Shown here in pieces: positions 11,455 through 35,848 of a stretch of DNA of 64,000 nt. The stretch lies in assembly GCA_016720655.1 (NCBI GenBank), contig JADKKE010000033.1, positions 177,923 to 241,922 on the forward strand, in the 5' to 3' direction. The stretch's first letter is position 1; the number at the start of each line of letters is the position of its first letter. The notes below the pieces were generated by a model that did no database searches, had not been told where the DNA came from, and worked only from the letters and a program-made list of their open reading frames with translations. A program made the translations under genes and the position numbers. Source of the DNA: Bacteroidota bacterium (GTDB lineage: Bacteria; Bacteroidota; Bacteroidia; AKYH767-A; 2013-40CM-41-45).

Positions 11455-14400
11455 TTACTGAACAGCGATACGGATTGTCCTGGCTTCTGTTCCTTCCTTC
11501 AACAAGGAGAGGAAGTATATACCGTAAGCATATTTGCTCATATCCAGTTCAGTGTAATTGTCGCCTTCATCAGCAGTAATTTCATGCTGCATGTAGATGT
11601 GTCCTACCATATCCGTAAGAATAAGAACATGTTTGTCTTTCTTATCAGAGCTGAAGTTTACTGTTAGTTTTCCAGCCGTTGGATTCGGATAGGCTTCAAA
11701 TGTTCCTGTGAAGTCTGTGGATTCTTCTTCAGCAGTACGACAAGTGAGTGTCACGGCTATAGTCTTACTTTGAATAGCAGACGGTCCGCAAAGGTTATTC
11801 GCTTTTACAGTGAGCACAGCGCTTGTAGAAGTGGCTGTAGTGAATTTCACTTTCACACTTGTTCCGGATGTACTTCCAACAAATGTTGCTCCGCCTGTTA
11901 TTGCCCAGGTGTAAGAAGTAGCACCTGTCACCGAAGCGATGGAATAAGTAACTGACGTTTGTGTTTTACAAACAGAAGCAGCTCCAGAAATAGTCCCGGG
12001 TTGAAGTGTTAATGCTGAAACACCCAGCGAAGAGATCGCACTTGATCCACAAGAATTATTTGCTGTAACAGTTACATTTCCAGTACCCGTGAAACTATTT
12101 CCATAAGTCACTTTAATGGAAGTTCCTGAATTGCTAGTGATACTAGCACCACTTGGAACAGTCCATGTATACGAAGTAGCTCCGGTCACTGCAGCAATAG
12201 AATATGTATTTCCGGATTTTCGACACACATTGCTTGTCGGCCCGGAAATTGTTCCCGGTGCAAGTGGTGTGGAACGAACGGCAAGAGTTGATACCGGGCT
12301 GCTTCCGCATGCATTCGTTGCGTAGACTGTCACATTTCCTGATGTAAATCCTGCAGGGAATGTGATGTATACCCTGTCGAAGGTGCTGTCAACCGTAAGC
12401 GGGTTTCCGGTTAATCCGGAGCCTTTGGAGATGACTGCACCCGCCGGAGCTGTCCATGTGTAAGAAGTTGCATTCGGGAATTTGTAAATTCTATACTCGC
12501 GCGTAGTACCAGCACAAACACCCATTGTTGGATTTTCCGATGAGGTGAATATCGGAGGGATTACCAGCATACCCAATACCAATTTCAATTGCGGGCCGCT
12601 TGTTCCGATGCAATTGCTTGCTTGTACAGCCAATAAACCAATTACATATCCTGTTACAAAATTAATTGTAATCGAATTTGTCCCCTGACCGGATGCGATG
12701 GTCGCTCCCGGAGCAATCAATGTCCATGTATAACTTGTTGCGTTGGCAACAGGAGCGATGGAGTAGGTTGCTGTTAAAGGACCACAAATTGTAGCAGGAC
12801 CGGTAATCGTTCCGGGTGTAGCGGGACTCGCAGTGAAACGCGTGAGTGATTTGCACGTGAAAATACTGTTGCCGCATGCATTCACTGCTTTAACACAGAG
12901 TAATCCGCCGCTGTAAGTGCTTCCGAAATTGACTGTAATTGATGCGGCGGTTGAAGAACCTGTCACACCTGTTGGCAATGTCCACACATAGGAAGTGGCT
13001 CCGGCAACAGGAGTGATGCTAAATACAACACCATTTTGTCCTCTGCATCCACCGGAAGGTCCGGTGATTGCTCCAGGTGCTGATGGCGCACTTCCTGACA
13101 CAACAATTACAGCTGTTGAAGCACTTGAACAGTTTTTGGAATCGGTCACCTGTACAGTATATATACCCTGAGCAAGACCAGAAATACTTGTTGTGGTTTG
13201 TCCGCCTGGTGTCCACAAATATGTGTAACCCGGTGTTCCTCCCGATGCAACAACTGAAGCCGACCCGGTGTTTCCGGTGCAACCTGTAGGTGTGACCGAA
13301 GTAACTCCACTGATTGCAGTAGGAACTGTAATTGTTGCAGAGGCAGAAGCCAAACATCCTTTCACATCGGATACAGTATAGGAATATGTCCCGGAAGAAA
13401 GTCCGCTAACCGGCGAACCTCCGTAAACATAGAATCCATTGCCACCGGTTGCAGACAATACAACACTTCCTGTTTGACCAAAGCAATCCGGATCGGTAGG
13501 TGTGGCGGTAAGTTCCAATGGAGTCGGAGCTGCATTAATAATTGCGACAGCTGTTGCGGTACAACCATTAATATCGGATACTGTATAGTTGTATGTTCCT
13601 TCACTGAGATTTGTGACAGCATCTCCACCGGTAGTGTAAGGTGCTGTACCTCCGGAAGGAGTTAAGGTTACACTTCCTGATTCACCAAAGCAATTCGGCT
13701 GAGTGGTAAATGCATTCAATACAACAGTTGAAGGAGCTGTATTGATTGTTACGAATACCATTTCACTACAACCATTCGAATCGTTTACAAAATAAGTATA
13801 CACACCTCCTGAGAGATTGCTAGTATTTGATCCGGAGAAGGTGTATGGTGGAATCCCTCCTGTTGCACTCAAGACTACATTTCCGGTCTGACCAAAACAA
13901 CTTGGTTGAGTTACAGAAACATTGAGATACAATCTTGGCGGGAACTGACTGATGATCACCTCAACTGTATTGCTGCAGCCATTATCATCAGTTACGGTGT
14001 AATGATAAGTTCCGGCATTGAGGTTCACCTGTGCATCGCCGCTATAGGTATAATTTCCTGTACCACCCGTAGCCGTCAGATCAACACTTCCGAATTCACC
14101 GAAGCAATGTGGTTGAGAAACATTCACATTCAATACGAGTGGATCAGGAATGATAAGTGATCCGTTTTCATATTGAACAGTATAATTGGAATCGGCAGCA
14201 AAGCTGAATCCGGATGGAACAATCTGATAGGTTCCTCCTTGTGTCAATGGACTCACGACCTGGTCAAGATCATCAAGAACAGTAAACGTTGGTCCGGATG
14301 CCGGTGTAACACCTGTTGAATCCTGGTTCTTAAATCCGGAAACAGTAGCTGTGAATGCAGGAGTTTCAAAACATGCGAGGTTCTGATCGTCTGCAGTTAC

Positions 14401-17400
14401 AGTAAGTGTTGCCGGGAGAATGGTGAGACTTCCCAGTTCGTAGCTGATATCAAAATTATCGGAGAAGAAAGCACCCGGTACTACGATCCATGTACCCACT
14501 GTTGTACCGGTGATAAGATTCACCGACTTGAGTTCGGTAGTAGTATCGGTTGAGGTAACATCATCTTCATCCAAAACAACTGCAATGTTATCGCCATTGT
14601 TGGTATTCACATCAATACTGTCTACTTGCGTCGTACCGTTGGTGATTACACGAGGATTGGTAATCACGCGTGGATTTGTAATCACCCGTGGGTTCGCCAT
14701 TGCGCGTGAATGCAATCCTGCACCCGGACTTTCGAGAACGATCAGCGAAGAATCCGCATCGAAATTGAACACCGATTCCGTAGCAAGATCGACGATGATT
14801 GTCGAATCTATTACAGTGAGTGTATTGGTGATAACCCTTGGATTTGTAATGACCCTGGGGTTCGCCAATGCATTACCTGTCGCAACGATTGCAAGATTTG
14901 CAAAGTCGGAGTTGGTGATCACGCGCGGATTTGTAATCACTCGTGGATTAACAAGAACCAGCGCATTCGACATTGTCAACTGGTGACTTTGCTGAATCGA
15001 ATCGAGGAAGTGAGCCTGATTAGAAGCATCAATATTCGACGGATCATAGATGTAATTAAACTGGAAATCACCGATTTTGTCACCATAAGTAAGGGTAGTA
15101 TCTTTTGGTGAAATCACGATAGGCATTTTCTGAATTGTCAAACCGCCCGGGTAGAAATGATATTCGTATTGAGCATTCAATGCCGAATCAATTGGATCGG
15201 AAAGATTGAGGGGAGACATGGAATTCGCTACCTGATACAAGCCAACACCACTTTCAGCAGTAGCAAGAGTTTGGTAGTTTAAGTTATCCAATTTCAATTC
15301 CGCAGCGGTGAGACTGTCTTCCGACAAATCTTTACCGTCAACAAGAATGGTCGAAGTGAACTCCGGTAATTTTTCTCCGTATTTCTTTGCCTTGTTGTCC
15401 ACCTGAACAGTGAGGACGCGTTTCACAGAATTGAAGAAGAACAAACCGTTGGAGAATCCGCCGTCATTCAGATTCGGAACTGTTGGAGGAGTATACACTT
15501 GAATGATCGGATTTCCCAGGAAGGTTGGAATCGTTGCAGTGAGGTGTGTATTGTCAATAAATATGGTGGTCAATGCCGTTCCATCCATATAGATAGTGGA
15601 TGAATCATCGAAATAAGCACCACTGACAGTAACATCAAAAACCACAGTTCCCGGAACAATCGAAGTATCTGGACGCATAAGAGAATCGATAACAGGTTTT
15701 CCTGTAGCGAAGCTGCTAATTGCTGCAGTAGCATTTATTAATCCGGCACCGGATTCATAGTCAAATCCACCGGCACCCATATCAATAGCCGTTGATTTCA
15801 AAATAGAACGCAGACTATCAGGAAGCATATTTTCAGAATAGAATTTCTGTCTTGCCTGAAGCACCAGAGCGGCGACACCCGCAGCATGCGGAGCAGCACA
15901 AGAAGTTCCATAGAAATTATAAACTCCATCCAGCTCAAGATCTTTCGAGAAGAAATTCACAGATGTATTTACTCCATCCGGAGCAGTGAAATCCGGTTTG
16001 TCGCGAACGACTCCGCGTACTGCTGTTCCACCAATAGAAGAAAACGGTTCTATTACCGGAGCAAGGTTGTTGTTGAACACCGGCGTTTGAGTATAACGTG
16101 CAGCACCAACAGACATTGCACCGTCAGCATTCGCTTGTCCAATAATCGTAGAACCTCCGTTTGGATATTCCTTGATTGTAATATCTCCACGATAAACGAC
16201 ATATTTGAATTTCATTGGTGTAACAGAATCAAGTGTCCAGGTACGTGAAATGATGATGTTGGCATCAACATCCGATTTCACAGTAAATGGCAATACTTCG
16301 ATTGGGTCACCCCAGTTGTTTTTGCGATTCAGTCCAAAGAGTTTGGTTCCGGTAACATCCGTGAGGTAAATATCAAAATCGTTTTGTGCACCGGGTAATT
16401 GCTTCAGTGAATAGATCGAATCATCCCATTGCAACACGAGCGTATAAGCTCCTTTTTTCAAACCGATTTTTTGAAGGTAATCTCCTCCGCCAAAATCATG
16501 CACCTTACCGGTAATTCCGGCAGGAGCAGGTATCGGATTGAATGTTCCCTCGAATGATGCATTGCCGAAGTTTCCGGCAGATGTGAAATAACTCACTCCA
16601 AGATCACGTACATAGTTTACGGCTTTCGAAACAATTCCATCCTGGAAATAAGGTTCTGTAATGTAGGTTACGTCATCAACGATTACATCGCAGGTATCTT
16701 CTGCAAGAGCAACAATTCCTTCAGCAAAATCTCCGGCACTGATAAATCCTGTGCGGAATGCAAGGGTTGCTTTTGGAGCAATGTCATGCACAATTTGTAG
16801 CATAGCACGCCCTTCATCCAAACCTTTACCAAACGGATAATCAAGCAACACTTCAACTTCTCTTGTGTTCACCGGATTGCCTGGACCTGGAAGATCTTTG
16901 TTTCCGATATCAATATTTTTCGGATTGCCTGAAATAGTATTATAACTATCGGACATCACACCAATCTTAATTCCTTCTCCATCCAAATCAAACATCGATC
17001 TGGCAGAATCAGATTTCATTGAACGATCACCTTGTGAGGTAATAAATCCTGCGCTGGAAACCGCTGAATAATTCGGTCTCACGAAATTGATCATGGATGG
17101 AAGCGAATCCAGTTTTTTCAAATTGACGATCGGGTAATAACCTGTGATGATGATGGATGTATCTCCGTTATCAATCAATCCGGTCATTCCATAAGGAGCT
17201 GTTTGCAACAAAGCAAGCGTTGGATAGTATTGATTGATATTGGTAATGACATCAATGAGGACAGAACCAAAATCATCGAATTGGAAGATGACGTTATTGG
17301 TGTCTGGTCCGATTGAATCCGGATTCTCATACAACTGTGTTAATTCCGGTCCGAGAACAGTAGTTACCTTTCCGGAATCAGGCGCGTTGTAATACGGAAG

Positions 17401-20400
17401 AATACAATTGGTTACAAACACTTCTGTGAAAGCGGTCAAAGAACAACCATTGTTATCAGTAAGCGTGTAACTATATGTTCCGGCAACAAGGTTTATCGTA
17501 TCTGATCCTGTAATTGTATACGGAGGAGTACCACCTGATGGTACTAGGGACAATGGCTCCGGTAGTAGAAGTTTCAAGACAAACGATAGTGCTATCTGTT
17601 ACTCCGGACAAAACAAGTACATCCGGTTGAGAAACAAAAATACTATCACTTGCACTACAACCAACACTATCAATTACTGTAAAATAGAGAACAGTGTCTG
17701 AACCCGAAAACGAGCCATAACTCTGAATGCCTGTTCCTGAGAATGGCGGGATACCTCCGTTTACAGAAACGTTTAGTGTAAACGATTCACCATGACAATT
17801 CGGTCCGGAAGCGGTTGCCGAAACAGACATAAAAGGTGAAACAATTATTGTCACACTTGAACAAGATCCCGGAGAGGCACAACCACCTTCACCCCGTACA
17901 AAATATTCTGTAGTGTCTGTTGGAGTGACGTCAATCGAGGAACCGGTGCCAACGACCAGACCCGATCCACAGCTATCTGCATACCATGTCCAGTCGGTTG
18001 CGTCATTGAGATTTCCGGAAACAACAGAGAGTGTTGTTGTTCCACCAGAGCAAATAATGTCTTGTGAGACTGATATTACCGGAACATCGGGTTCGTTACA
18101 ATTTCCGATTCCGATGGTAATCGTTGTATCAAAGGAACATGGTACTCCGTCTGTAATGCTGAGAGAATAACTTCCTGCGGAAAGTCCTGTGAAGGAACCG
18201 GTCGCGTTAGTGATGTTTACAGCACCACCATCGCTGATAGAGTAAGAGTAACCACCAATAACACCACCGCTTGCAGGTCCAACAGAAATAGACCCATCGG
18301 CTGCACTTGCGACAGATTCATTTACGACTACTACAGAACCCGGAAGAATTGGATCGAATTGATAGATCACAATAGTGTCTGTAGTCTGGCATCCAAATAA
18401 ATCTGTACCGATCACGGAGTAAGGAGTCACTACAGTAGGAGATACGGTGATGTAAGACGTTGTTTCGCCTGTATTCCAGAGATAGGAATTGGAACCACTT
18501 GCCGCCAACACAGTTGAAGAGCCAGGACAAATCTCCCAGTCAAAACTTGGCCCAGCATTTACTTGAGCATTTCTAATTTCGATCGGTTCAGAAATTCCAA
18601 CACAGGCACCGGATGTAACAGTTACAGAATAACTTCCCGGACCAGCAACAGCAATTGAATAAAGTGTTTCAGTAGTGGACCACAAATACGCATCGTAAGA
18701 TCGCGGAGCAATTTGTCCAATCGCAACTGCATCAATTTCATTCCAATCATGAACAAACGGAGAGTTCATAGCAATTCGTACTGCAGAAACAGGGAATGCT
18801 GTCATACTGAAACTGATGTGCAGTTTGTGAGCAACTTCAGGAAGTGAACCTGCCGTAGCTGTATAAACAACCTGATAGGAACTTGTATATGGATTTAAAA
18901 CATAAACAGTATCAATAGAACCCGGTGCATACGTTTCAAAGATGTCAATGAAGTTAATTGGCGCCGGATTTGCAAATCCTACTTCGATAAACTCACGTGA
19001 CTGATCCTGGTAATTCGGTGCCCATGCGTTGGCATTGTCACCGTATGCAGGATAAACGTTTGGTGCTCCAAGTATTTGAACTGCACCAAAGTCAGGAGTA
19101 GTGTATTCGCTGCTGAAAGCGATCACAGAATTTGCGTAGCGAAGATTGTTGTATTCGGAGACAATCAGGGTGTCACTGATAGAGTTACAAACAGGCATTC
19201 CTGCGATCAATGTGTTGGTAATAACCGGACGAAGAACCTGAGTTGTTGCATCTAAATCATTACAATCCGAACTGTCCAGCACATAACCACTGGGTTGGCC
19301 AATTGAAACCTGGCTCACAAATGGATTTCCGAAGGAATCTCCATCGGCATCTTCATAGTATGTCAGCGGAATTCCTTCATCAATATTTCCGTCACAGTTG
19401 TCGTCAATTCCATTGGCGATTTCACCGCCGGTTGAACTGCCATTGTACATGCGAAGAATTTCTTCTTCGGAAAGTTCTCTTCCATAAACCAGCACTTCGT
19501 CAATTTTCCCGTGAAAGAAATAGTTTAATACCGGACTTTCATCGGCACCAATAAGAAGTGCGTGACCGCTTGCACCAAAACTGATTGTAGGTTCGTAGCG
19601 ATAGGCAACAGGCACACCATCGATATAAAGTTTTGCTGTATCTGTATTCGAATTGAATGAGAAAGCCACATGCGTCCAATCGCCACTCGCTGAATATGGC
19701 GCATCAATAAATGCAGAAATCGGATCTGCACCATATTCATTACCAATAAAATCATCCGATAAGTTAGCATACAGGTTCCATGAATTGCCTGAACCTGCAC
19801 CAAATGCTTTGCTTAAAATTGTGGCATTTAATGGCGAGCCGGATGTCGGATTAATCCATGCAGCCAGAGTTAGATCAGAAACGTTGAAGCTACCGGTATT
19901 TGGCACTTCGATGTACGCATCAGTACCATTAAATTCATATGCATTATCCGCAACACCGAATCTATCAGTTGTTAGGGTTGCATTGTGAACGATTCCGTTG
20001 TTTCCTGCAGGGCCGTTGTCATTTGCATCTCCGTTGAAGGGAAGATACACAGCAGCTCCCGGTAACAATGAGAATGGAGGGTGAACATTTTGGTTGTTAT
20101 CATTACAATCAAACATATCAGTAACGTAACCATCCGGTGGAGCACAAATTGAGGCAACACTCAAAGGGACTCCTACGTTTCCGAATCCATCACCGTCAGC
20201 ATCCTGATATGCGGTAATAGTACTGATGTCCGAACAATTGCCTGCCATACTAAAGCCTGTTGGTTTTACCCAATTCGAAGTTGTACCGCTCAAATTAAAA
20301 TTATGAAGAGTACCATCACGGTTAAAACCGCTGGAATCTACCAACACATCAACAGCAGGCATGGTGTTATTGGCAAAAGCCACACCCTGATTAAAATTGT

Positions 20401-23314
20401 AGGACGCAACCATGCCAAATTGATAATGGGTCATTTCGCAGCTCATGTTGAGTTCAACTTCTGTTGCACAAAGAGCTCTGTCCCAGATTCTCAATTCATC
20501 AATCGAGCCTCTCCAGGATTCTCCACCATCCCATTGTGAACCGATCAATAAGGTTGCTACAGGGTTTAATGGCGGTACAGCGGTTGGACTTGGTATTGCA
20601 AATCCTCTTGTCTCCATCAGAACACCATCAAGATAGAAGTAGGTGTTGTCAGTGGTGCGAACAACAGTATAATTGTGCCAGGATAAATCCAAAGGAAACG
20701 GAACAGATGTATACCATGCATCACCGATACGGATAACCCCATCAAAGTTTTGTCCGATGTAAAAGTTTCGTCCTTGCGAAACGATATCAACCATTTCTCC
20801 AAAGATTGGATTGTCATATTTCGCCCAAATGGAAATTGAGTATGGACTATCATTTACAGGAATTACTTCACTCGGCACCTCTACGTAATCATCCGCCCCG
20901 TCAAAATGCAAGGCTTCTCCGGGAGAAGGAGGCAATGCTTCTCCAATTTGGAAATCACTGAATGATTGAAGTGCACCAACGGTGATGGATAAATTGTCAT
21001 TGTCATATACAGGAACGGAGAACCAGTCAGGATCATCGTATTTCGAACCGACAAAAAGGAATGGGTCGGCACTTGGATCTACATCGGTCGCTGCCCAGGT
21101 GAGATGTGCATCCAATCCCAGAATAGATGCGGTAGTGTTGGTGATCGTCCAGAATCTGTTTACACTTTTATCCTGATCAATTCCGGAAGTAACAATAGCC
21201 GGGTGATCGCCTGCTTCTGTTTTGGCAAGAATATAACCGGGATCTGTAATGGATGCAGTTAGTGTGAGTGGAACATAAGTATCCCCATCTCCAATATCGT
21301 ATGGTAAAGTAATGGAGTTGTTGAAGTAGCGCTCCATATTGCCGACTACATAACTGACTTCCGATGCGCCGGATACAGCAGTAGTTGCGCCAATCTTGAG
21401 GCTGTTACCACCGGTATAAATTTTACCCTGATCAAACAATAAATTTGCACTCACCAATTGATCACCATCGAGTGTAATATTATTGGAATTATTCAGACGC
21501 AAATTTGCAAATTCACCAGTACCTGTGATCCATTGCATATTTGTGCCACCCATATCAAATGCATCAACACTGATGATTCCGTTGTTTTGGATGGTGTCTC
21601 CAGTAAAAATCAATTCATTTCCTTGAAAAGTAGTGCCTGATTCAGTTTCAATTCTTCCTGCAAGTTCACCATTACTTCCATCAATACCCAAAGTGCCATT
21701 CTGGATTGAAAGATTACCGTAATTATTAAATGTGAAACCAGAGAAGAATGTAGAAAGGCCACCCCCGGATATGATCACTAAACCTCCAATATTATTATTA
21801 AAAATACCATCGGAAGTTGGTGAACTGATATCCGCATTATTCGTAATATCAAAAACAAAATAGTTGTTGAATACAGAACCATCAACAATAGTCATCAAAG
21901 TGTTCGAACTAAAATCACAAGTAGTGTAATTATTTAGTACAGCACCTGCTTCAAGACTATGATCAGAGTTTCCGTCGATTGAAAAACTACAACCCTGCCG
22001 TATATTAAAGACACCGGCCCCGCCGAGGTGTGTGAGCCCGCCCCAGTTAAACGACGATGAGCCCGTAAATTCAGCAACACCGTCAACGACAATAGAAGCA
22101 GTATTCATATTGATCGTACCATTACAGGTAAGATCATCACCAGCCCCGTTCAGCAAATGCAAAGTGCCTTCGGAGAGAGATAACTGTCCACCATTTTCGA
22201 TGACCAACTGATCTGCATCAATGCCTTGAGATGCATTTGAAATGTTATGACCGGCGCGAATTGTAATCACTCCGCTGTTTACTCCATCTGGTGCATCGGT
22301 AGCAGCAACCCAAAAGGTACCATCATATATTTCCCATGTTGTAGAGTCTCTCCAATTGCCACTACCCGAGGTGCGATAATCATAGTTCGGAGTTGGCAGA
22401 GTGAATTCCCAAAGCTCTGAACCATTTGCAGCATCAGTAGCTGCAACATACAAATGATTGTTGTAATTCCCACTTCCACTACCGGGAATGATATCTGCCG
22501 CTAAACTTACAGAGGATCCATCGTAGGAAAACAACTCTTGTCCGCTCGTTCCGTTATTTGCATTAAAATATATTTTTCCGTTATAAACGGTTAATTGTTG
22601 AGGAGTAGAGCTGCCAACACCCGGATTAATATCTGCAGCAAGTGACACAGTGCTTCCATTGTATTTCCACAGCTCACTTCCATTGGTACCATCATTTGCT
22701 GTAAAATATAAATCGCCGGCAAACCCAACAAAACTTGAAGGACCAGAACCAATTGCTCCAGGGCGGATGTCTGCAATAAAACTTATTGTGACGCCATCAT
22801 AAGAATAAAGTTCAGGTCCGGCCGTTCCGTTATTGGCCGTAAAGTACAGTTTGCCACCAAATACATAGAGCGATTGCGGTGAAGCATTTCCAGCACCTGT
22901 ACTGATATCCGAAACTCTCGATGCGGATATTCCATCATACACCCAAAGTTCTGTTCCGAAAACTCCGTCACTCGCCTGGAAATACAATTTGCTATTGTAA
23001 ACTGTGAGATAAGAGGGATTTGAACCAAGAGTTCCAACACGCACATCTGCTTTTAGGCTGGCAGATGTACCATTGAAAGCATACAACTCCGAACCGGTTG
23101 CGCCATCTGTAGCACTAAAAAACAGTTGTCCTGCATAGACAACAAGAGATTGAGGTACAGAATTACCAGTACCAGGATTGAGATCGGTGACCCGAGTCTG
23201 AGCAGTGATAGAATTCCTGCTAATGAGACTCATGAACAAGATAAAGAACAATACACTGAATGTTCGGTTCTTTACAGGTTGATTTTTGAAACTGTTTTGA
23301 AATTGTGTTTTCAT
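11455..23314 (-). CDS. Giant T9SS-secreted multidomain protein (about 3,950 aa), split by one frameshift near 17548
   Basis: ORF-track pieces 17471..23314 and 11455..17577 join at ...ETSTTGA|LSLVPSGGTPPY. The junction matches the continuous paralogue sequence TSTTGSLSLVPSGG. An extra C in gccatt is the likely cause. The N-terminal domains are a signal peptide, six ELWxxDG repeats, a beta-helix-like module, two LamG/ConA-like domains, two DADGDGFGN MopE-like motifs and SprB-type repeats. A subtilisin S8 domain follows (GIKIGVMSDSY...HDIAPKA...GTSCAAPHAAGVAALV). Then come the NPRVITN heptad block, an MBG-like domain, six or more SprB repeats, PKD-like domains and a T9SS CTD (YPNPTAGKLTVNF...). 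Confidence 0.8.
14644..14950 (-). repeat. NPRVITN heptapeptide tandem-repeat block in giant gene 1 (2+2+3 copies)
   Basis: The protein reads ...VLVNPRVITNPRVITNSDFANLAIVATGNALANPRVITNPRVITNTLTV...AMANPRVITNPRVITNPRVITNG. Codons vary between copies. Confidence 0.8.
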
Positions 23315-24197: not shown

Positions 24198-27100
24198 TTA
24201 ATCAACGGCAACACGGATACTTTGTGTACTTCCGTTTCCATTGTCAAGACTAAACATGTAGAGACCTGTTGCCGATTGGCTCAAATCAATTTCGAAGATG
24301 TTTTTGCCTTCAACAGCATCGATGATTTCCATGAACACAACATTTCCAAGGAGGTCAACCACTTTTGCGATGTATCGTGCTTTCGCTTCGGAATTGAAAC
24401 TTACCGTGAGTATTCCCTTGGTTGGATTTGGATATGCACTCAACGATTCAGAATTAATAGCATCCTGTTCTACAGTTCTGCAACCGGCATTGATGGCAAT
24501 TGTTTTTTGTGCAGGCTGACCTGGACCGCACGCATTGTTCCCGTTGACTTTAAGTGTTGCGCTTGCCGATAAAGAGTAGTTAAAGTTTAGAGTAGCACTT
24601 GTGCCGGTAGGGATCATCGATGGGCCACCGGTTACTGACCAGGAATAGGTATTCGCTCCCTGAATTGTCGCAATTGAGTATTGTTGTGTTGAACTTTTGC
24701 AAACAGAAGCGGGACCGGTGATAATTCCGGCTGCTGCAGGCCGGGCTGTTATGGAATAACAACGTGCCACACCGGCACCACATGCATTGGTTGCTGATAC
24801 ACAAATATTCCCTGTTCCCGTGAAGGCAGCGAAATTGACGGAGATGGAAGTGGATCCGGTAAGAGGAGTGAGTGCTGTTACTCCGGCAGGTATTGTCCAG
24901 CTATAACCTGTTGCACCTGCAATGGCAACAATTGAATAAGTTACATTGGTCATTCCGCAAACCGCACTATTAGGACCAGTAATACTTCCCGGTTGAGCAG
25001 GAGCAGAATGTATTGTATATGCACGACTGAAACTACCGCATGCATTTACTGTTGTTACAGTGAGCACACCACTTGTCCAGGTCGGACTGAAATTCACAAC
25101 ACAAGAATTGTTACTTGTAGAAGCAATGTTTGCATTTCCCGAAATGGACCAGTTGTATGAAGCAGTTCCGTTGACTGAGCCCATCGAATAGGTCACTCCC
25201 GAAGTTCCGGGACAAACAAATCCCGGACCAACCAATGCATTGGAATGTGTTGGTGTTCCTGTGATACTTAGCTGTCGGGTCGAGCTAATACCAATACAAT
25301 TACTTGCATATACATTTATTGTTCCTTGCCCGAATCCCGCTGGCACACTCACCTGCACACTGTTCGTTCCCTGACCACTGAGTAGTGTTACCCCGGTTCC
25401 GGAAACATTCCAAACGTAGCTCAGAGCGTTTGCAACTGCAGGAATTGCATAAGTGTATGTTGCGGGCCCACATGCAAGAGCAGGACCAGTAATAAATCCG
25501 GGGTTAGCAGGTTTTATAGCGAGGACAGGAACGTTTTTACAATTACTTATTCCATTACCACAATCGTTCACAGGTGTTACACAAATGAAACCACCATTGT
25601 AATTATTCGCGAATGAAACAGTAATTGAATTGCTGCTGGAAATTCCGGAACAACCACCCGGCATTGACCAGATGTAACTTGTTGCTCCGGGAACAGGCAG
25701 GATGGAATAAACAATTCCACTTGTATTTCTACAGGCACCGCTTGGGCCAGTGATTGCACCGGCATTTCCCGGACCCGATCCGGTGCTGGCAACAGCAATG
25801 GTTGCATTTCCAGAACATCCGTTTACATCCGTGATTGAAACAGAATAATTTCCTGCAGCAAGACCGCTTGCATTGGCAGTTGTTCCGCCAACAGGACTCC
25901 ATAAGTAAGTATAAGAACCGGTTCCTCCGCTGGCAACAACAGCTGCAGTACCATTACTGAATCCGCAATTATCAGGCGTGGAACTTGCAAGGCCTTCTAC
26001 TTTGGTTGGTTGGGTAAGAACAACAGATTTATTCACACTGCATCCATTGGCATCTGAAACTGTAAAGGTCCAAGTTCCCGCATTGTACGAGAATGTTCCT
26101 GTTCCTGTATAGGGAACAGAGCCGCCACTTGCTGTGATTGAAATATTTGCAAAACCATTGTAGCATGGAATAGTTCCTGCAGTTGCGTAAGCATACAATG
26201 TATCCGGTTCAATGATTGTTGCGGAGGATGTAGAAGTGCAACCATTTGAATCCATCACTGTGTAATAATAGACACCTCCGTGTAGATTGGATACAGAATC
26301 TCCTGTGAAAGTATACGGTGCAGTTCCACCATCACCGGTGAGACTCACACTTGCTGTCTGTCCGGCACATACAGGCTGCGTCGCGGATGCAGAAAGTACA
26401 AGAGGATCAGGGAGTGTGAGGGATCCGTTTTCATACTGAATAGTATAATTCGAATCGGCAGCAAAGCTGAATCCGGATGGAACAATTTGATACGTTCCAC
26501 CTTGTGTCAATGGACTAACGACCTGGTCAAGATCATCCAGAATTGTAAACGTTGGTCCGGATGCAGGGGTAACACCTGTGGAGTCCTGATTTTTAAATCC
26601 GGAGACTGTCGAGGTGAATGCAGGAGTTTCAAAACAGGCAAGATTCAGATCGCCTGCAGTGACAGTAAGTGTTGCAGGAAGAATGGTGAGACTTGCCAGT
26701 TCGTAGCGGATGTCAAAATTATCAGAGAAGAATGCGCCCGGAACTACGATCCATGTACCCACGGTTGTACCTGTGATAAGATTCACAGATTTGAGTTCGG
26801 TAGTGGTATCAGTTGAGGTAACGTCATCTTCATCCAATACAACCGCAATATTATCGCCGTTGTTGGTTGTTACATCAATACTGTCTACTTGTGTCGTACC
26901 ATTGGTGATCACACGCGGATTGGTAATTACACGTGGGTTGGTAATCACGCGTGGGTTCGCCATTGCACGTGAATGCAATCCTGCTCCCGGACTTTCGAGA
27001 ACGATCAGTGAAGAATCCGCATCGAAATTGAATACCGATTCCGTAGCAAGGTCGACGATGATTGTCGAATCGATTACAGTGAGTGTATTGGTGATAACCC

Positions 27101-30100
27101 TAGGATTCGTGATGACGCGTGGATTTGCCAATGCATTTCCTGTCGCAACGATTGCAAGATTTGCAAAGTCAGAGTTGGTGATCACACGCGGATTGGTGAT
27201 CACTCGTGGATTTACAAGAACCAGAGCATTCGACATTGTCAACTGGTGACTTTGTTGAATCGAATCGAGGAAGTGAGCCTGATTAGCAGGATCAATATTC
27301 GACGGATCGTAAGTGTAATTAAACTGGAAGTCACCGATCTTGTCACCATACGTGAGTGTGGTATCTTTTGGAGAAATCACGATTGGCATTTTCTGGATTG
27401 AAATTTTACCAGGAAAGAACACATACTCATAGGTAGCCGCAAGTGCCGAATCTACAGGGTCATTAAGGTCGAAAGGCGGTCTGGATGCAGCAAGTTGATA
27501 GTTTCCAACTCCGCTTTCGCTGGATGCAGCTGTTTGGTAAATCAGATTGTCAAGGCCTACATCTGCTAATGAAAGATTGTGGTCGGAGAGCAATTCACCA
27601 TCAATCAAAATGGTGGCAGTGAATTCAGGAAGCTTTTCTCCATATTTTTTAACCTGGTCATCAGTCTGAATTGTCAGAATTGGTTTCACGGAATTGAAGA
27701 AATACAAACCATTGGAGAACCCGCCATCATTGCCATTTGGAGACATTGGTGGATTGTATACCCTGATAATAGGATTATCGCTGAAGACAGGGAACTCACC
27801 TGACAAATGATTTTCATCAATAAAGACCGTTGGGATTTCTACACCATTCAAATAAATGATTGATGAATCAGTAAAATAAGTCCCTTGTACAATAGCAATG
27901 ATTGGAGCTGTGCCCGGGGTGACGGCAGCCGTTGTTTCGATGAGTGAATCAATTACTGGTTTAGGTGTTGCGAAGGAACGGATCGCAGCAGCAGCATCGA
28001 TCAATCCTGAACCTGAAGAAAAATCAAATCCAGGTGCTCCCATATCCACAGCAGTAGATTTAAGAACGGATCGCAAAGAATCCGGCAACATTTGTTCGTT
28101 ATAAAACTTCTTCTTCGCTTGTAAAACAAGTGCGGCCACACCAGCAGCATGCGGAGCAGCGCAGGATGTTCCGTAGAAGTTATACAAATTGTCGTGCTCT
28201 TCATCTTTGGAATAAAAATTCACAGAGGTATTGACTCCATCCGGAGCAGTAAAGTCCGGCTTGTTGCGCACCTGTCCGCGCACGGGTGCTCCACCTACTG
28301 AAGAGAATGTTTCGATGATTGGAGCAGCATGATTGAAGACAGGAGTTTGTGTATAGCGCGCCGCTCCCACTGACATAGCACCATCGCAATTGGCCTGGCC
28401 AATAATCGTTGACCCACCATTTGCATGCTCATCAATGGTCATATCGCCACGGAATACTACATATTTAAAATGCATCGGCGTGACAGAGTCCTGAGTCCAT
28501 GAACGGACAATCATTATGTTTGCGTCCACATTTGACTTAACCGTGAAAGGCAGGACTTCAATAGGATCACCCCAGTTATTTTTTCTATTCAGTCCAAATA
28601 ATTTTGTTCCTGTGATATCTGTCAGGTATACATCGTAATCGTTTCGGGCTCCAGGTAATTGTTTCATTGAATAAATGGAATCATCCCATTGCAATACCAA
28701 AGTATAGGCACCTTTTTTCAATGAAATTTTTTGCAAATAATCCCCCCCTCCAAAATCATGTGCTCTTCCAATGACTCCGGCCGGAGCTTGCATGGCGTTG
28801 AAAACACCCTCATAAGAAGTATTTCCAAAATTTCCGGCAGATGTGAAATAACTCACACCCTGATCTCTTACATAATTTACAGCCTGGGAAACAATTCCAT
28901 CCTGAAAGAATGGTTCTGTTATATACGTTACATCGTCCACGATCACATCACAGGAGTCTTCCTGAAGAGCAACGATACCTTCGGCAAAATCTCCGGCGCT
29001 GATAAATCCAGTTCGGAATGCAAGCTTAGCCTTTGGAGCGATGTCATGTACGATTTGCAACATCGCGCGTCCTTCATCCAGCCCTTTGCCGAGCGGGTAT
29101 TCAAGGACAACTTCTACCGGTTCGGTATTGACTGGATTTCCCGGTCCTGGTAAATCATGGTTGCTGATATCGATATTTTTCGGATTTCCGGAAATGGTAT
29201 TGTAGCTGTCGGACATGACACCGATTTTGATCCCCGATCCATCGAGACCAAACATTGATCGCGCAGAATCAGATTTCATTGAACGATCTCCTTGCGAATT
29301 GATAAAACCTGCAGCGGCTACCGGAGAATAATTCGAGCGGGCAAAATTGATCAGTGCAGGAATCGAATCCAGTTTTTTCAAATTTTCGACGGGAAAATAA
29401 CCGGTGATTGTAATTGTTGTATCACCGTTATCTATAAGACCTGTCATTCCATACGCTGGTGATTGCAACAAAGCATATGTTGCAGGGTACTGATTGATAT
29501 TGGTAATTACATCAATCAAAACATCACCCAAACTATCAAATTGAAAGATGACATTATTGGTTTCCGGGCCTATCGAGTCAGGGTTCTCGTACAATTGTGT
29601 CAATTCAGGACCAAGTACAGTATTCACTTTTCCGCTATCCGGTGCATTGTAATACGGGAGAATGCAATTGGTAACAAAAACTTCAGTGAGTTTCGTAAGA
29701 GAACAGCCATTGTTATCGGTAAGCAGATACGAATAAGTGCCTGCGACCAGATTGCTTGTATCTGAGCCGGTGATAGAGTAAGGAGAAGTACCTCCGGATG
29801 GAACCAGCGATAAACTTCCTGTTGTTGAAGTCTCCAGACAAACAATAGTGCTGTCAGTAATTCCGGCTAACACAAGTGCATCGGGTTGGCTTACAAAAAC
29901 ATTAGTTGCAGCAGTACAACCTGCATTATCAGTAATCGCATACATGAAAGAAGTATCGGCAGCACTAAATCCGGAAAATGACTGTGCACCATCATTGAAA
30001 TAAGGAGGAGTTCCTCCGCTGCCGATTACATTGACAAGAAAACCATCGCCATGGCAATTCGGTGAAAAAGGAGTCACGGAAATTCCAGGAGTTTCATTAA

Positions 30101-33100
30101 CTGTGATAGAAATGATGCCACAAGAACCCGGCGTTGAACATCCACCTTCACCTCTTGCAAAATAGGTAGTTGAAAGGAGGGGAGTCACGGTTATCGAAGG
30201 ACCATTCCCGATGGGTGAGCCACCACATGATCCTTCGTACCAAAACCAGTCGGTTGCATCGTTTAAATTTCCGGAAGCGATCGAAAGAGTTGTACTGGCG
30301 CCACTACAAAGTATTGTGGAGCTTGCAGAAATCGTTGGAACATCTGGTTCATTGCAAGCGGTCAACAATTCTCCAACCTGAAAATCTCCAAAAGTAAAGA
30401 CACCGGCAATTGAAAGATCCGTAGCATTTTGAGCAAAAGTTGACATGGAGCCCCAGTTCGGAGCATTGTATTTATATGCAACAAAATTGGATGGATTAGC
30501 ACCCGCATCAACATCCGCCGTATCCCAATATAAATACACATAACAAGCATTATTCGTTAGCGCATCTGTTTCGATATGGTAATTTTTATTTACTGTTTTT
30601 GCCGTGTTAAGTCCTGAGGAAGCAATTGCAGGATGATCACCCGCATCTACGCTTACCGTTACAGTACCATTCGTGAGCATACCATTCGGCAAAACTCCGA
30701 TACGTCCAAAATGAATTGAATCGCCAACTTCAAAATAGAAGAGAAATGGAGTTGCAAAATAATGCGACATATTTCCGTCAACCCAACTAAACGAACTTGT
30801 TGCAGTTGATACATTCGTATCCATGATCATTGTGTAGGGACGAACATGAATAATTCCAAGACCAAATATCACATTGTTGACAATGGTTTGATCGGATCCC
30901 ATTCTCAGACCATTTGCATTGTACATGTATAAATTGCTGATCCTTCCCATTGTGCTTCCGCCCAAATACTGGCGGTTAAGACCATCGAAAATCAGGTTGT
31001 TCAATGCAATTGTTCCATCATTAATGATCGTATCACCTGTAAAATGCATCTCTTCATTTCCTGCAAGTGTTGCACCGGATTGAATTTCATAATATCCTGA
31101 ATGGACACCTATATTTCCAGCAATACTATAGGGAGTATTTATGGTAAAAGAGCCGCTACTTACAATAACTCTTCCGTAATTATTAAATACAACATCATCA
31201 AAGGAACCGGTGCCGGTTGACGTTTCGCCATTTCCGTTTTTCACAATTATTCCACCCGGCATGTTGTTTACGAATGCATCAAAATCGAGCGCTCTGAAAT
31301 CATCATCACTATTGATGTTGAGTGTTCCATAATTGTTAAGAAACGTACTATTGAAAATCTGGATAGCTCCGGTGTCCCAGTTGCAGGTAGAATAATTGTT
31401 CAGGATGGTTCCGTTTGTCAGGCGGTGGTCGCCTGCTCCATTAATTGTGAACGTTGCACCACTTTGAATATCCATCGTTCCATCTGAGCGGATGACAGAG
31501 AAGTCATTCCAAGTGAATGATGCGGTGTTTTCAATTACCACACTGGCGGAATTTAAACGTAAGGTCCCGGAAGTGATAAAGCTTGTTCCGGTAATGATAA
31601 ATGAACCCTGGCAACTAAAATCTGTTCCGGCTCCATCATTTAAATCAAGCCTTCCATTTATTATGGAAAGCGATGCGAGCGGAGTGACAGTCAATTCATC
31701 AGCAGTTTGGTTTGTTGTAATTGCAATATTGTGATTAATTGTAATGGTACTATCGGACGCAGAAGGAGGAACGGAGGCTGTAATCCAGGTGCAACCGTCA
31801 AATACTTGCCAATTTCCAGCAACACTCCATTCACCATCAGCTTGTGTTCGGTATTCATTTGTCGTAATACACTCATCAATTACACTGTTGCAATTGTCAT
31901 CGATCCCATTGAAAAGAATTTCCGTTGCTCCCGGATTTGCCAAGGCATTGCTGTCGTCGCAATCTGTGCTGTCCGCAACATAATTCAGTGGAGCGAGGCA
32001 ACCGGCATATAAAAATTGAGTTTGATCTCCATATCCATCTCCGTCTCCATCCAGGTAATAAGGGACCAGAACACATGGTGTATCGATGGTAAAACTTGAC
32101 ATTTCTGACCCCGTACATTCGGATGCACTACCACCGGCGTTATAAGGATAAACGACTATGATGTAATGACCAATCGCCGGCATTGGAATGTCGAAACTGG
32201 TTCCCACAATTACTGTGTCAAAGCTAAACGAGTTGGAAGGTTGATCATTACCCGAAATCGTGTAGAAAGTGGCTTCAGGAATTGGATCAAAAGAAATGCT
32301 GAGATTCGGACTGCTGTTTGGATCTGTAGTGGAGCCTTGAAGTGGTAATGTGATCGTTGTTAAACATGGAGGAGCAACGTATTGAAAAAACGTTTTTAAA
32401 CTTAAGCCCCCTCCAAAACAACCGGCATCATTTCTTGAACCATCACTGATATCATTGTATCCCGGATTTGGGTCTCCGCCATTGATAGCATCGGAGCCGG
32501 GGAAAAGAGCGCCATCGGAAACAACGATTGTATTGGAAGTCCCTGTATTCGTATTGTCCGGAGTAAAACCTGCACTGAAATCAATGCCGCTGCCGGATTC
32601 TTTTCTGAAGAAGTTATAATTGAATTCCGCAGGCTGACCATCCAGAACCTCGTAGCCGAAAGTAGTACATTCATTTACATAAATCAGATTGTTTTGACAA
32701 GCCAATTTGGTCCACCGGCAAAACAAGCGGCAATATTGCACGAACCCTTACTGATAATGGTATTGTTTACAAAAAAGCTGTTGCCGGCATTGTAAACAGC
32801 AGTTGTATTCGCCAGACCACTGGGTCCGAGACCTCCTCCTTGCCAGAGCATAGAAAGTAAGTTGTTCGAGATGTACAGTGGATTTTGGTTGTTGGTAAGC
32901 AAGATTGCATTTCCGGTCTGTGTGATGTAAACCTGATTGCCAAGAATCAGGATTTGCTCATCTGTGTTTGTCGCATTTGCAATATTTATTCCATCACCAT
33001 CGGCAAACACATAGCATGCCCGAATGACACCACGACCCGTTGTAATGCCAGTTCCACTTCCGCTTTGGAAAACAGAATCACGTTCAAGAATGGGAACGCC

Positions 33101-35848
33101 CGGAGCAGAACTCAGTTGCATCGTTCCATAAATTGCACAATCCTGCACAATCATGGTATCATCAGTCAAAGAGTTATTGTAGACCGAGCCGTTGGTTAAC
33201 TTAGCATTATAGATTTTCCATCCACTCTGCAACACCACATCACCTGTGATACTGAATTTTTCTCCATTTACTGCAGTGTTGAATACCAGAAAACCAAGGC
33301 CCGGATCTCCGGAGCTAATGGTTTCAGGATAAGATAAACCGCCTGCGCGCGGATAAACTAAAATTGTATCTCCTGAAACGGAAGCAGTGATGGCATCTCC
33401 GATTGTTGTGAATGCACCATTCAATCCGTTTTCTTCAACGTAGTGAGTTGTGGGTGGTACAAGTGGCAAAGCTTCTCCTATTTCTACATCTCCGGACGAT
33501 TGAATTCCGGAAATGGAAATGGAAAGATTGTCTGTGCTATTCACAGTTAATGGAAGCCAATTCGGGTTGTTATAAATAGCAGCAGAAAAATTAAAGGGGT
33601 CTGCTATTCCATCCAAATCACCTGGAGCCCAATTTAAAAACGCTTCTGCTGTGCTAAAATTTGTGCCCACATCAGTAATCGTCCAATGACGGTTCACACT
33701 TTTGGTTGCATCAATCCCGGAAGTCGCTACAGCCGGGTGATCACCTGCATCAGTTCTGACCAAAATATACCCCGGAGTTGAAATGGTTGGATTCAAATCA
33801 ACCTGAAGATATTGAGTCTGGTCACCAACGAAAAATGGCAGTGTTCCGGAATTTGCGAAATAACGTTGCAAATTTCCATCGATATAACTCGTGCCGGAAG
33901 CTCCTAATACAGCCGTGGTTTCACCAATTAGAAAACTATTATTTCCTGTATGGATAACTCCGTTGTCAAACAATAAGTTTGCAGTAATAGTCTGATTGCC
34001 TGTTAATGTAATTCCACTCGGGTTGAAAATATGCAGATTCGTAATTTCGCCATTGCCACCAATTATTTGTGCGGAAGTTCCGGACATATCAAAAGCATCG
34101 AAGGCAATCGTTCCGTTGTTCACGATGCTGTCGCCGGTAAAAGTCCACTCGTTCCCTGTTAAAGCAGCGCCGGGTTCAATTTGATAATAGCCAGGGTTTA
34201 CGCCATTGCTTCCATCAATTTGAATCGTTCCCTGATCAATAATGACTGTTCCATAGTTATTAAAAGTGAAACCGGAAAAGAAAATGGATACACCGGTTCC
34301 GCTATTTTCAAGGATTGAACCTGCCAGATTGTTAAAGATTCCATCAGAAGTTGTAGAGCGTATGTCTCCATCATTATCAATATTAAAAGTACCATGGTTA
34401 TTAAAAACTGAACCATCCAGAATTCTCAACTCTCCGGAATCACTCCAGCTACAGGTTGTGTAATTGTGAAAAACACAACCTGATTCCAGGAATGCAGGCG
34501 AAGAAATGTTGAATCCATTTAGCGCTCTTACATTGTATGTGCCGGTACCACCGACATGTGAATCGCCTCCCCATGAAAAATCGCCATCTGTAGGTATTTC
34601 AACTACACCATCATTGACAATTGTTCCGGTGTTTAAATTCAGTGCTCCAAAACATACAAGATCATCACCAGCACTGTCGAGCACTGTGAGCGTGCCTTCT
34701 GAAATAAAAAGGGCTCCGCCATTTTGTATCACGATCTGATCTCCGGAAATGTTTTGTGAGTTATTTGAAATATTATAACCGTTTCGAATTGTAATCACTC
34801 CACTGTTCGTGCCATCAGGAGCGAAACTTGCAGGGATCCATGAAGTGCCATCAAAAACTTCCCAGGCAAGCGGGTTGTTCCATCCAAATAATCCTGCAAC
34901 AGATCGGTAGTCACCTGTTTCTGCGGGCGAGTATTCCCAAAAATCTGTTAGGAAAATTGATCCATCGCTTCCCGTTCCCAGAAATCCTTTACTGGCGATT
35001 GAAAAACCAGGGGCTCCGGTTCTTCCGACAGCTGGAAAATCTGAAATTGCCAGCCAACTGTTAGAGCCAGGATCATAACTATAAAAATCACTTGGATAAT
35101 TAGGAATCAAATCTTGCCCCAATCCAACATATGCTAAACCATTCACCGCAAAGCCGGAAGCATCGTATCTTGCCTGCCCGGGAAATGAAGCTTTCGCTGT
35201 CCATGTATTGATTGAAGGATCGTATTCGTAGAAATCATTTAGAGCACTTGCATTTAAACCAGTGCCTACATAGCCTTTTGATCCAATTGCAATTCCTACG
35301 GCCAGAGTACGCGGTCCGCCGGGTAATGAGGCAATGGAAGTCCATGAATCAAGAATGGGATCGTATTCCTCAAAATCATCAAATGTTCCGCCTGAACCGA
35401 TATTGAAGCCGGTTCCAACATATCCTTTGCCATTCACTGAAAAAGCGACAGCTTGGTTCTGGCAACAGAAAGCATGTTTGCTTTCTGTACCCATGTGTTG
35501 TTGGAAGGATCGTATTCATACAAATCGTTGTGGTTTATTATTCCATCCGATCCAGTACCTACATATCCTTTTGCCCCAATTGAAAATGCCGCCGCATTGA
35601 TTCGTGGATTACCGCCAAAATCAGCCAGCTGGGTCCAGGTATTTATTGTAGGATCGAATTTCCACCAATCCTTTTCTATGCTTCCTGTTTGACCTAAACC
35701 CATATACCCATTGCTTCCAATGTTGATGGCCACACCTCCGATCGACCTGCTCCCGCAAATCAGATTTTCGCTCCCAGGAATCAGATTGCGCTTGATTGTT
35801 TAAATAGAAGAATAACAAGGATAATGTAGTGAATACCAGTTTTTTCAT
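24198..35848 (-). CDS. Giant T9SS-secreted multidomain protein, paralogue of gene 1 (about 3,880 aa), split by three or more frameshifts
   Basis: The start codon at 35848 opens with MKKLVFTTLSLLFFYLNNQAQ. Frameshifts lie near 35780, near 35470 (a T5 run that should be T6; this restores ARTKLSLFSVNGKGYVGTG) and near 32700 (an aaa/aaaa run; the piece 24198..32741 has no ATG). The domains are Kelch-like repeats (YVGTG...YEYDP.NTW), two beta-helix modules and a YYLDGDGDGYGD MopE-like motif. Further on are SprB repeats, the S8 peptidase, the NPRVITN block, an MBG-like domain, more SprB and PKD-like repeats and a T9SS CTD (YPNPTKGILTVSF...). Confidence 0.75.
26903..27215 (-). repeat. NPRVITN heptapeptide repeat block in giant gene 2
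   Basis: The protein sequence is identical to the block in gene 1. The DNA is about 90 % identical. Confidence 0.8.

Follow-up and report, generated by a model that had tools for sequence, protein, structure and literature searches.

Selection on the peptide keeps short repeat units identical in an insertion domain of Bacteroidota surface proteases

Why should a short peptide recur without a single amino acid change in two giant bacterial genes whose codons for it have drifted apart? The question is raised by a stretch of 64,000 nucleotides from a Bacteroidota bacterium (GenBank assembly GCA_016720655.1, contig JADKKE010000033.1, positions 177,923 to 241,922; hereafter the window), in which two paralogous genes on the minus strand each encode an S8-like (subtilase-type) peptidase followed by a block of NPRVIT units. 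The units are kept identical by purifying selection on the peptide and not by recent slippage; they lie in a previously undescribed domain inserted into a beta-grasp domain, and the insertion travels with an S8-like peptidase throughout a large family of predicted type IX secretion system (T9SS) cargo. As to what the units do, our preferred reading, to which we assign a probability of about 0.4, is that they are beta-strand modules that pack unit on unit within a folded accessory domain of the protease. The block and its clusters occupy the following positions:

11455–17577, minus strand: gene 1 main open reading frame (ORF), 2040 amino acids (aa).
24198–32741, minus strand: gene 2 main ORF, 2847 aa.
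14638–14949, minus strand: gene 1 104-aa block (aa 877–980), identical in peptide to the gene 2 block.
26901–27212, minus strand: gene 2 104-aa block (aa 1844–1947), identical in peptide to the gene 1 block.
14911–14949, minus strand: gene 1 cluster A, two NPRVIT units plus N (aa 877–889).
14824–14862, minus strand: gene 1 cluster B, two NPRVIT units plus N (aa 906–918).
14638–14694, minus strand: gene 1 cluster C, three NPRVIT units plus N (aa 962–980), period 18 in Tandem Repeats Finder.
27174–27212, 27087–27125 and 26901–26957, minus strand: gene 2 clusters A, B and C.

The stretch common to both genes reads ...LVLV-NPRVITNPRVITN-SDFANLAIVATGNALA-NPRVITNPRVITN-TLTVIDSTIIVDLATESVFNFDADSSLIVLESPGAGLHSRAMA-NPRVITNPRVITNPRVITN-G..., a 2+2+3 layout of (NPRVIT)2N, (NPRVIT)2N and (NPRVIT)3N in which a terminal N closes each cluster. 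An earlier note, made from the sequence alone, had placed these repeats within a few bases of the positions given here and had counted copies and clusters correctly, but described the unit as the heptad NPRVITN and the identical stretch as 110 aa; with a period of 18 nt, the unit is the hexapeptide NPRVIT with a shared N, and the identity extends over 104 aa. Chance is excluded as the origin of the seven copies, because no 6-mer occurred more than twice in any of 2000 shuffles of the gene 1 protein. NPRVIT was looked for elsewhere in the window and not found. The reading frame of the block is secure, since the peptide is unchanged, despite synonymous differences, in the two paralogues, in three orthologues from other genomes (L001–L003) and in a metagenome fragment of 99% identity (L005); the recurrence of the same peptide in independent assemblies likewise rules out an assembly or frame artefact inside the block. 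The frame correction that the earlier note had feared does not touch the repeats: frameshifts lie near 17,500 and 32,700, outside the block. Two antisense ORFs, 14510–14986 and 26710–27249 on the plus strand (158 and 179 aa), overlie both blocks; we rejected them as genes, since the codon composition of the repeats most likely gives rise to them.

The anatomy of the surrounding protein explains where the block sits, in terms of three features:

14398–15126, minus strand: gene 1 split MBG_2 (beta-grasp) domain with its insertion (aa 818–1060).
14551–15042, minus strand: gene 1 insertion domain of ~160 aa (aa ~846–1009), comprising the three clusters and the non-repeat pieces 'SDFANLAIVAT' and 'DSTIIVDLATESVFNFDAD'.
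26661–27389, minus strand: gene 2 split MBG_2 domain with its insertion.

One MBG_2 domain (PF18676, 'MBG domain, YGX type') flanks the block on both sides, with MPIVISPKDTTLTYGDKIGDFQFNY as its N-terminal and KSVNLITGTTVGTWIVVPGAFFSDNFDISYELGSLTILPA as its C-terminal piece. Intact, the 243-aa segment matched the MBG_2 profile only over positions 29–72 (16.9 bits); with the insert excised in silico, the match covered positions 2–72 of 72 at 25.3 bits, above the 25-bit gathering cut-off. Because excision restores a full-length match, the beta-grasp MBG domain holds an insertion of ~160 aa, with the block at its core. The likeness to MBG_2 thus resides in the residues flanking the insert, and the copy in the window differs from the ordinary domain of ~72 aa in carrying ~160 additional residues with three clusters of identical hexads. 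Ordinary MBG_2 copies stand on both sides of the insert-bearing one, within a cassette that runs in the order pro-like region, S8-like peptidase, Ig/CoaZ-like region, MBG, MBG with insert, MBG. No Pfam, NCBIfam or PDB family covered the insertion in profile and sequence searches, and no prior description of it was found in the searchable literature on the motif, the MBG domain or repeats of T9SS subtilases; the insertion is a previously undescribed domain. The earlier note was therefore right that the motif belongs to no common repeat family and that it lies downstream of the S8 domain. The repeats do not form a linker next to the protease, being nested in a split MBG_2 domain ~260 aa after the Ser motif, and nothing was found to support the note's suggestion of a propeptide; a processing site or a binding module, also suggested there, may apply.

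The note had also suggested that the units are glycosylation targets. The general O-glycosylation sequon of Bacteroidota is D-(S/T)-(A/I/L/V/M/T) (PMC8550257), and the hexads were rejected as such sequons, as no Asp precedes the Thr of NPRVIT. A D-S-T triplet that does fit the sequon (PMC8550257) lies in the scaffold between clusters B and C (14800–14808; gene 1 aa 924–926). D-T-T or D-S-T is common at hexad-type homologues, and a sequon is present in only 43/94 members of the family.

Identity of the units is maintained at the level of the peptide. Between gene 1 and gene 2 the block differs at 27/312 nt, with zero amino acid changes; 26 of these differences are at third codon positions and one is the first base of an Arg codon (AGG/CGC). 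By the Nei–Gojobori method the synonymous divergence (dS) of the block is 0.41 and the non-synonymous divergence (dN) effectively 0, the lone 'non-synonymous' count being a path artefact of that Arg codon. The ratio is thus far from the value near 1 that the earlier note had named as telling against it. Within each gene the copies have diverged as well: all seven NPRVIT copies in gene 1 and six of the seven in gene 2 are distinct DNA sequences, with third-position identities between copies of 0.36 and 0.43, respectively, and both codon strings quoted in the note are present. Its reading of purifying selection in place of recent slippage is borne out by these distinct copies and by dS 0.41 with no amino acid change. 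A slippage-generated tandem repeat is ruled out by the distinct copies together with the constant 2+2+3 layout among relatives, and a function at the DNA or RNA level was rejected because synonymous sites are free.

The perfect identity of the two paralogues, which the note had credited to selection, is in part the product of gene conversion, as seen in a tract with these limits:

14128–15180, minus strand: gene 1 side of the tract (aa ~800–1150, ~350 aa), dS 0.4–0.65 inside and >2 outside.
~26391–27443, minus strand: gene 2 side of the tract.

The tract spans the insert-bearing MBG domain and the next MBG domain. Outside it, dS reaches 2.2 in the protease region, and both flanking regions are saturated. 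Because dS is low across the whole tract, conversion contributes to the identity of the blocks. The tract is specific to the genome from which the window derives: L001 and L002, paralogues in a related metagenome-assembled genome (MAG), show no such reduction in synonymous divergence. Comparisons between genomes single out the block all the same. In every one of them it is the best-conserved segment of the cassette, with amino acid identities of 0.88–0.91 to L001/L002 and 0.75–0.77 to L004, against 0.73–0.83 for the S8 region and 0.58–0.76 for the flanks, while synonymous sites are near saturation, with synonymous differences at roughly half the conserved codons or more. L001, L002 and L003, from MAGs of uncultured Bacteroidetes and Flavobacteriales, retain every NPRVIT unit that they cover and are 88, 83 and 93% identical over the 243-aa region. 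The 2+2+3 layout is found in six genes of the NPRVIT/NPRVVT clade (genes 1 and 2, L001, L002, L004 and, as far as it reaches, L003).

The same signature extends across a family. An exhaustive phmmer search with the 155-aa insert against 1.84 billion representatives returned only 17 proteins (24–43% identity), 16 of which carry the same insertion, while one match (P0011) looks unrelated; related loci numbered 3 in reference genomes and 46 in metagenomes. With a 991-aa cassette query, 2,808 proteins matched at E ≤ 1e-10. They are typically 1,400–1,700 aa long, carry PF00082, PF18676 and PF18962, bear only the names 'S8 family serine peptidase' or 'MBG domain-containing protein', and come, where the source is named, from MAGs of Chitinophagaceae, Flavobacteriales, Sphingobacteriales and related groups. 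Against the note's worry that the block might belong to a widespread annotated repeat family, the family is widespread but not annotated. Every homologue has clusters A, B and C, and between them stand two conserved pieces that are not repeats: an 'xDLxNLSxxAS' helix and 'DTTxVVDLAxxSxFNYxxD'.

The unit itself differs by lineage and is uniform inside each protein. It is NPRVIT in the clade of the window genes, NPRVVT in L004 and NGRVVT in L006; other units include NGRAIV, NARALV, NSRALV, NGRALV, NARNLV, DARAIV and NARAGV. Further hexads are SGKVIT, SGKAIL, RGYAIT/RGFAIT/RGLAIT, NGSALI, VRAAVN and SQRAVV; ATALVN, RGTALVN, RGVAMVN, GGKALVN, NKFTLVN and NRARGIVN occur as well, as do two octapeptides (IVNGQAVT and GGVPVAIV), a 12-mer (NGSGATGRALVN) and a 14-mer (NGGGGTTDTRVLVN). 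Among 94 full-length inserts, 81 contain at least three identical 6-mers and 75 at least four, with 44 different top units; core identity of the units is 0.74 within proteins vs 0.42 between proteins. Across 37 gene regions (the two window genes and 35 loci), identical units are almost always distinct DNA, with third-position identities of 0.33–0.68.

How a whole array changes its unit can be followed in the ARALVN/SRALVN clade, in which A became S through GCN→TCN changes that retained the third base of each copy. Lineages are all-A, all-S or mixed (6 S + 4 A in L010; 4 S + 6 A in L013), and L010 and L013, whose DNA is 93% identical, differ in two units by single G/T changes. Because the change proceeds copy by copy through mixed intermediates, concerted change here arises by parallel point substitutions under selection, not by homogenisation of the DNA. 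Units diverge at the pace of the scaffold, from NPRVIT to NPRVVT (one change) at 71% identity and to NGRVVT (two changes) at 52%, and copy numbers are constant inside clades. A contingency locus or a hypervariable 'pherotype' region was rejected on these grounds, the units evolving no faster than the scaffold and their copy numbers being stable. A divergent octapeptide subfamily (L046:3102-4034, L047:6001-6936, P0038, P0059, P0065), with units such as IVNGQAVT, NGLAVSIV and GGVPVAIV, has arrays of 6–11 copies and an enlarged cluster A; its sub-threshold Pfam matches to the hairpin-repeat families DUF6799 and Bflower are weak, and we do not count them as evidence.

Structure prediction suggests a folded setting for at least part of the array. 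AlphaFold2 (AF2) run with 15 sequences gave a predicted local distance difference test (pLDDT) of 22–47 over the insert; with an alignment of 33 sequences, pLDDT rose to 77 and the predicted template modelling score (pTM) was 0.81. In the latter model the beta-grasp core and a long helix (residues 34–51 of the 243-aa piece) are confident. Cluster A (residues 60–72) falls in a region of pLDDT 79–90 and is modelled as coil with beta-bridges. Cluster B (residues 89–100) forms one continuous 10-residue strand (91–100) in a hairpin with residues 103–114, and this partner strand (LTVIDSTIIVDL) consists of two degenerate hexads of the scaffold. Cluster C (residues 150–178) has pLDDT <50. A Foldseek search of the PDB gave no match at E ≤ 0.001. 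The nearest familiar pattern is the hexapeptide of left-handed beta-helices (PF00132, [LIV]-[GAED]-X2-[STAV]-X), which shares the period of 6, the Asn/Gly turn and the aliphatic or small strand residues; read as V-N-G-R-A-L, the units of many lineages fit that motif. They depart from it in having K, R, Q, N or P at position i+4 in several lineages, in running for only 2–3 units, in periods of 7, 8, 9, 12 and 14 among relatives and in the modelling of cluster B as one long hairpin strand in place of a helix coil. The Hexapep profile (PF00132) gave no match in Pfam even at E ≤ 1, and a canonical left-handed beta-helix was rejected, given this missing match and the wrong i+4 residue.

Upstream of the insert, the peptidase is marked by the following motifs in gene 1:

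15877–16956, minus strand: S8-like peptidase core, MSDSYN to GTSCAAPHAAG.
16939–16956, minus strand: MSDSYN (Asp).
16801–16818, minus strand: DEGRAM.
16564–16578, minus strand: AGNFG.
15877–15909, minus strand: GTSCAAPHAAG (Ser).

Peptidase_S8 (PF00082) matched at 50.4 and 59.3 bits against a cut-off of 21.8 bits, with only profile positions ~140–288 (the C-terminal half) aligned. GTSCAAPHAAG aligns with solved subtilases at its Ser; the motifs of the catalytic Ser, Asp and Asn each persist in 92–109 of 109 members, and an omega of 0.05 shows strong purifying selection on the domain. By eye, DEGRAM, which occurs in 107/109 homologues, takes the place of HGTH in subtilisins, and a conserved His follows in IVHDxAP; the PDB profile alignments stop short of the N-terminal half. 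In gene 2, DEGRAM lies at 29061–29078. By eye, the spacing from DEGRAM to the 'AP' motif resembles that of sedolisin/kumamolisin, enzymes that use Glu as the general base.

The insert and the peptidase are inseparable in the loci available for the comparison. In 43/43 metagenome loci that had been located through the MBG-plus-insert segment alone and had enough upstream sequence, GTSxxxP precedes the split MBG by 252–274 aa without a break in the open frame, and the insert is for this reason obligately coupled to the protease at a fixed distance. A further observation concerns the putative junction between pro-domain and catalytic domain, which in many homologues (P0017, P0084, P0100, P0114 and others) reads 'PP-L-x-N-x-G' (PLVN-IG, PLTN-SG) and loosely resembles the '...ALVN-G' ending of units in ALVN-type lineages. 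In the window genes the junction (region 16990–17040) is AVSS-AG and PVAA-AG, unlike the NPRVITN units. The junction as a mimic of the unit was rejected as a general explanation, fitting loosely in ALVN-type lineages and failing in the window genes; it may still be a lead to protease specificity. Among characterised enzymes, the surface-anchored subtilases (lactococcal PrtP, streptococcal C5a peptidase) share the S8-type domain, the beta-domain stalk and the surface anchor; the match to NCBIfam NF040553 (SGO_0316 family) is weak (21.5 bits, E 3.9e-5), far below the 1400-bit cut-off. The window proteins differ from PrtP and C5a peptidase as Bacteroidota T9SS cargo with MBG, SprB and PKD_6 domains, and the unit arrays have no counterpart there.

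How, then, might selection hold every copy to one sequence? In the reading that we favour, each unit would give a short strand and an Asn-capped turn, and units and degenerate scaffold hexads would pair side by side as long two-unit strands. Each unit would pack against copies of itself, so that a change in a single copy would be disfavoured unless its neighbours changed too. The domain would most likely serve the protease as a rigid platform, accessory or stalk, and position or gate it. Such self-packing would explain together the uniform positions within a protein, the scrambled codons between copies and the different units in each lineage. Three architectural details bear on it: nearly every hexad-type lineage has exactly 2 units in cluster A, cluster C is broken at the same place in distant homologues by a conserved hexad that is not a unit ('NGTAxV'), and each cluster is capped by degenerate hexads. 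Position-specific architecture of this kind is typical of a fold, not of an array of equivalent sites. A folded, self-packing domain is favoured on four grounds: the structured modelling of clusters A and B, an architecture specific to position, stable copy numbers and units that evolve at the pace of the scaffold.

Several observations weigh on the other side. Unit-to-unit contacts are inferred, not seen in coordinates, and cluster C, the longest array, is the one modelled below pLDDT 50. The three clusters take differing local conformations in the model, which would fit a reader outside the domain equally well. Position 4 is free between lineages (K, T, S, N, Q, P, R) yet uniform within a protein, and ordinary structural repeats tolerate variation at exposed positions. 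Some subfamilies have variable spacers and periods of 7, 8, 9, 12 or 14 or irregular ones, and there is no related solved fold (Foldseek, PDB).

The rival that survives best, and which we regard as possible, holds that one short linear motif is present in several copies, the units, for a shared partner to read; this partner would most plausibly be the protein's own S8-like protease, acting in cis or on neighbouring molecules. It may take either of two forms, each as tentative as the whole: the units might be putative autocleavage or shedding sites, or they might be docking or pseudo-substrate sites, and co-evolution of unit and protease specificity would force all copies to change together. 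The tie to the S8-like domain at a fixed distance speaks for it, as do the conserved Ser, Asp and Asn motifs of a domain with omega 0.05 and the mode of change by parallel point substitution. A unit of 6–8 residues is about the footprint of a subtilase cleft, and surface-anchored subtilases such as PrtP and NalP release themselves by autoproteolysis. Three further facts are better explained by a reader than by packing: the uniformity of all six positions in each protein, even of those that vary between lineages; the variable spacers in some subfamilies; and the low confidence, possibly flexibility, of cluster C. Set against it are the modelling of clusters A and B as folded beta structure and not as accessible loops, the fixed copy number of cluster A in a position-specific architecture, and a pro-domain/catalytic junction that does not track the unit (AVSS-AG, PVAA-AG vs NPRVITN). 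The two readings, packing of units on one another and recognition by a reader, are not mutually exclusive.

A bolder form of recognition, which we consider a long shot, would be a self-encoded 'specificity code', in which the fused protease recognises, cuts or docks on the units of its own lineage, with shedding or release of hexa- or octapeptides after T9SS export. If true, bacteria would have in a single polypeptide their own counterpart to the polyprotein precursors that subtilisins process, and the protease would evolve together with its sites as point substitutions arise in parallel.

It is unlikely that the units form a regular surface for a periodic ligand (a crystalline polysaccharide, ice, a mineral or an anionic polymer) by analogy with antifreeze and ice-nucleation solenoids. 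The strict regularity maintained by selection, the beta-rich array in the AF2 model, display on the surface of polymer-degrading Bacteroidota and a weak Ice_binding Pfam match in one homologue, elsewhere in the protein, would all suit such a surface; the chemistry of the unit nonetheless ranges from Arg-rich through Thr/Ala and Gly/Ser-rich to aromatic, the period differs among subfamilies, and the window genes offer just 2–3 units per cluster.

Improbable, too, is a fused peptide precursor, in which the protease would free identical short peptides (for example of the VITNPR or NPRVIT type) outside the cell as signals or effectors that differ by lineage. Units that stay identical while their codons diverge are the hallmark of polyprotein precursors, and RNA polymerase II with its C-terminal heptads, polyubiquitin and neuropeptide or alpha-factor polyproteins all have units that are identical in protein, diverged synonymously and variable by lineage. 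The likeness of the NPRVIT array to these systems lies in identical units, diverged synonymous sites and a lineage-specific consensus, and is one of analogy only; the array has no homology to them and is extracellular, bacterial, part of a predicted fold and split into three clusters. Repeated identical short peptides also occur together with a subtilisin-like protease in fungal KEX2-processed repeat proteins and in the cyanobactin precursor PatE with PatA/PatG. In the present case a single giant T9SS protein unites protease and repeats, and the array has no dibasic or recognition flanks, no tailoring enzymes nearby and units that are predicted beta-strands. A subtilisin-like protease in the same polypeptide, T9SS export and lineage-specific units would suit release of peptides. 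It is opposed by units that abut one another without conserved cleavage or recognition flanks and diversify no faster than the scaffold, by the predicted place of clusters A and B in a fold, by the lack of a RiPP-type (ribosomally synthesised and post-translationally modified peptide) enzyme or receptor gene among the window neighbours and of any conserved neighbour in related loci, and by a yield of only 4–11 peptides per protein of 1,600–4,500 aa.

A neutral origin of the low-complexity repeat through recent replication slippage or gene conversion, or else an artefact of assembly, to which the 18-nt tandem period, the conversion tract between the paralogues and the frameshifts elsewhere in both genes might point, is refuted by copies that differ at near-saturated synonymous sites in 37/37 gene regions, by the recurrence of peptide and copy number in independent assemblies, by dN effectively 0 at dS 0.41 and by conservation of the block between species without conversion.

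The two giant genes extend well beyond the block:

11455–23314, minus strand: giant gene 1, ORFs 17471–23314 and 11455–17577, split by a 1-nt frameshift near 17,500.
24198–35494, minus strand: giant gene 2, ORFs 32684–35494 and 24198–32741, overlapping in different frames near 32,700.
11485–11691, minus strand: gene 1 T9SS C-terminal domain (CTD).

The ORFs overlap at 17471–17577 in gene 1 and 32684–32741 in gene 2, both breaks lying outside the block, and near 17,500 gene 1 has one base more than gene 2. As the orthologues in L001 and L002 each run through a single ORF (of at least 4,524 and 4,325 aa), the breaks reflect sequencing errors or recent pseudogenisation. By Pfam, the large N-terminal parts of both genes carry Laminin_G_3, Kelch-like, Ig_7 and MopE domains, and are followed by the pro-like region, Peptidase_S8, MBG_2 domains, SprB repeats, five PKD_6 domains and a T9SS C-terminal sorting domain. 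Export by the T9SS is indicated by a CTD match (PF18962/TIGR04183) at the C-terminus of both window genes and of 12/16 homologues.

The neighbouring genes encode a pseudouridine synthase, an outer-membrane beta-barrel protein, a PMT_2 glycosyltransferase and another CTD protein, and no window neighbour recurs in related loci. The PMT_2-family (dolichyl-phosphate-mannose-type) glycosyltransferase (36576–38072, minus strand) immediately precedes giant gene 2, whose strand it shares, and no counterpart was found in the flanks of 49 related loci. At 38376–40343 on the plus strand, a third predicted T9SS cargo adjoins the giant genes; it has a weak C-terminal Por_Secre_tail match just under the gathering score and weak tblastn similarity to L003 and L043.

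The insert is not the quirk of one genome: at least 2,800 T9SS surface proteases, from Bacteroidota of marine, freshwater, soil and sludge habitats, carry this unannotated domain, which merits a Pfam or NCBIfam model of its own, its carriers now being labelled only 'S8 family serine peptidase'. Its signature is unusual, with each residue of the unit identical across 4–11 copies while the codons drift and with a unit specific to each lineage. Bacterial repeats seldom show such a pattern, since as a rule it is their DNA that is homogenised, and the family offers a natural system for how selection alone can drive concerted evolution. For the surface proteases of these bacteria, it points to a candidate functional link between subtilase and repeat array, which may be an accessory platform, an autoprocessing code or the release of peptides.

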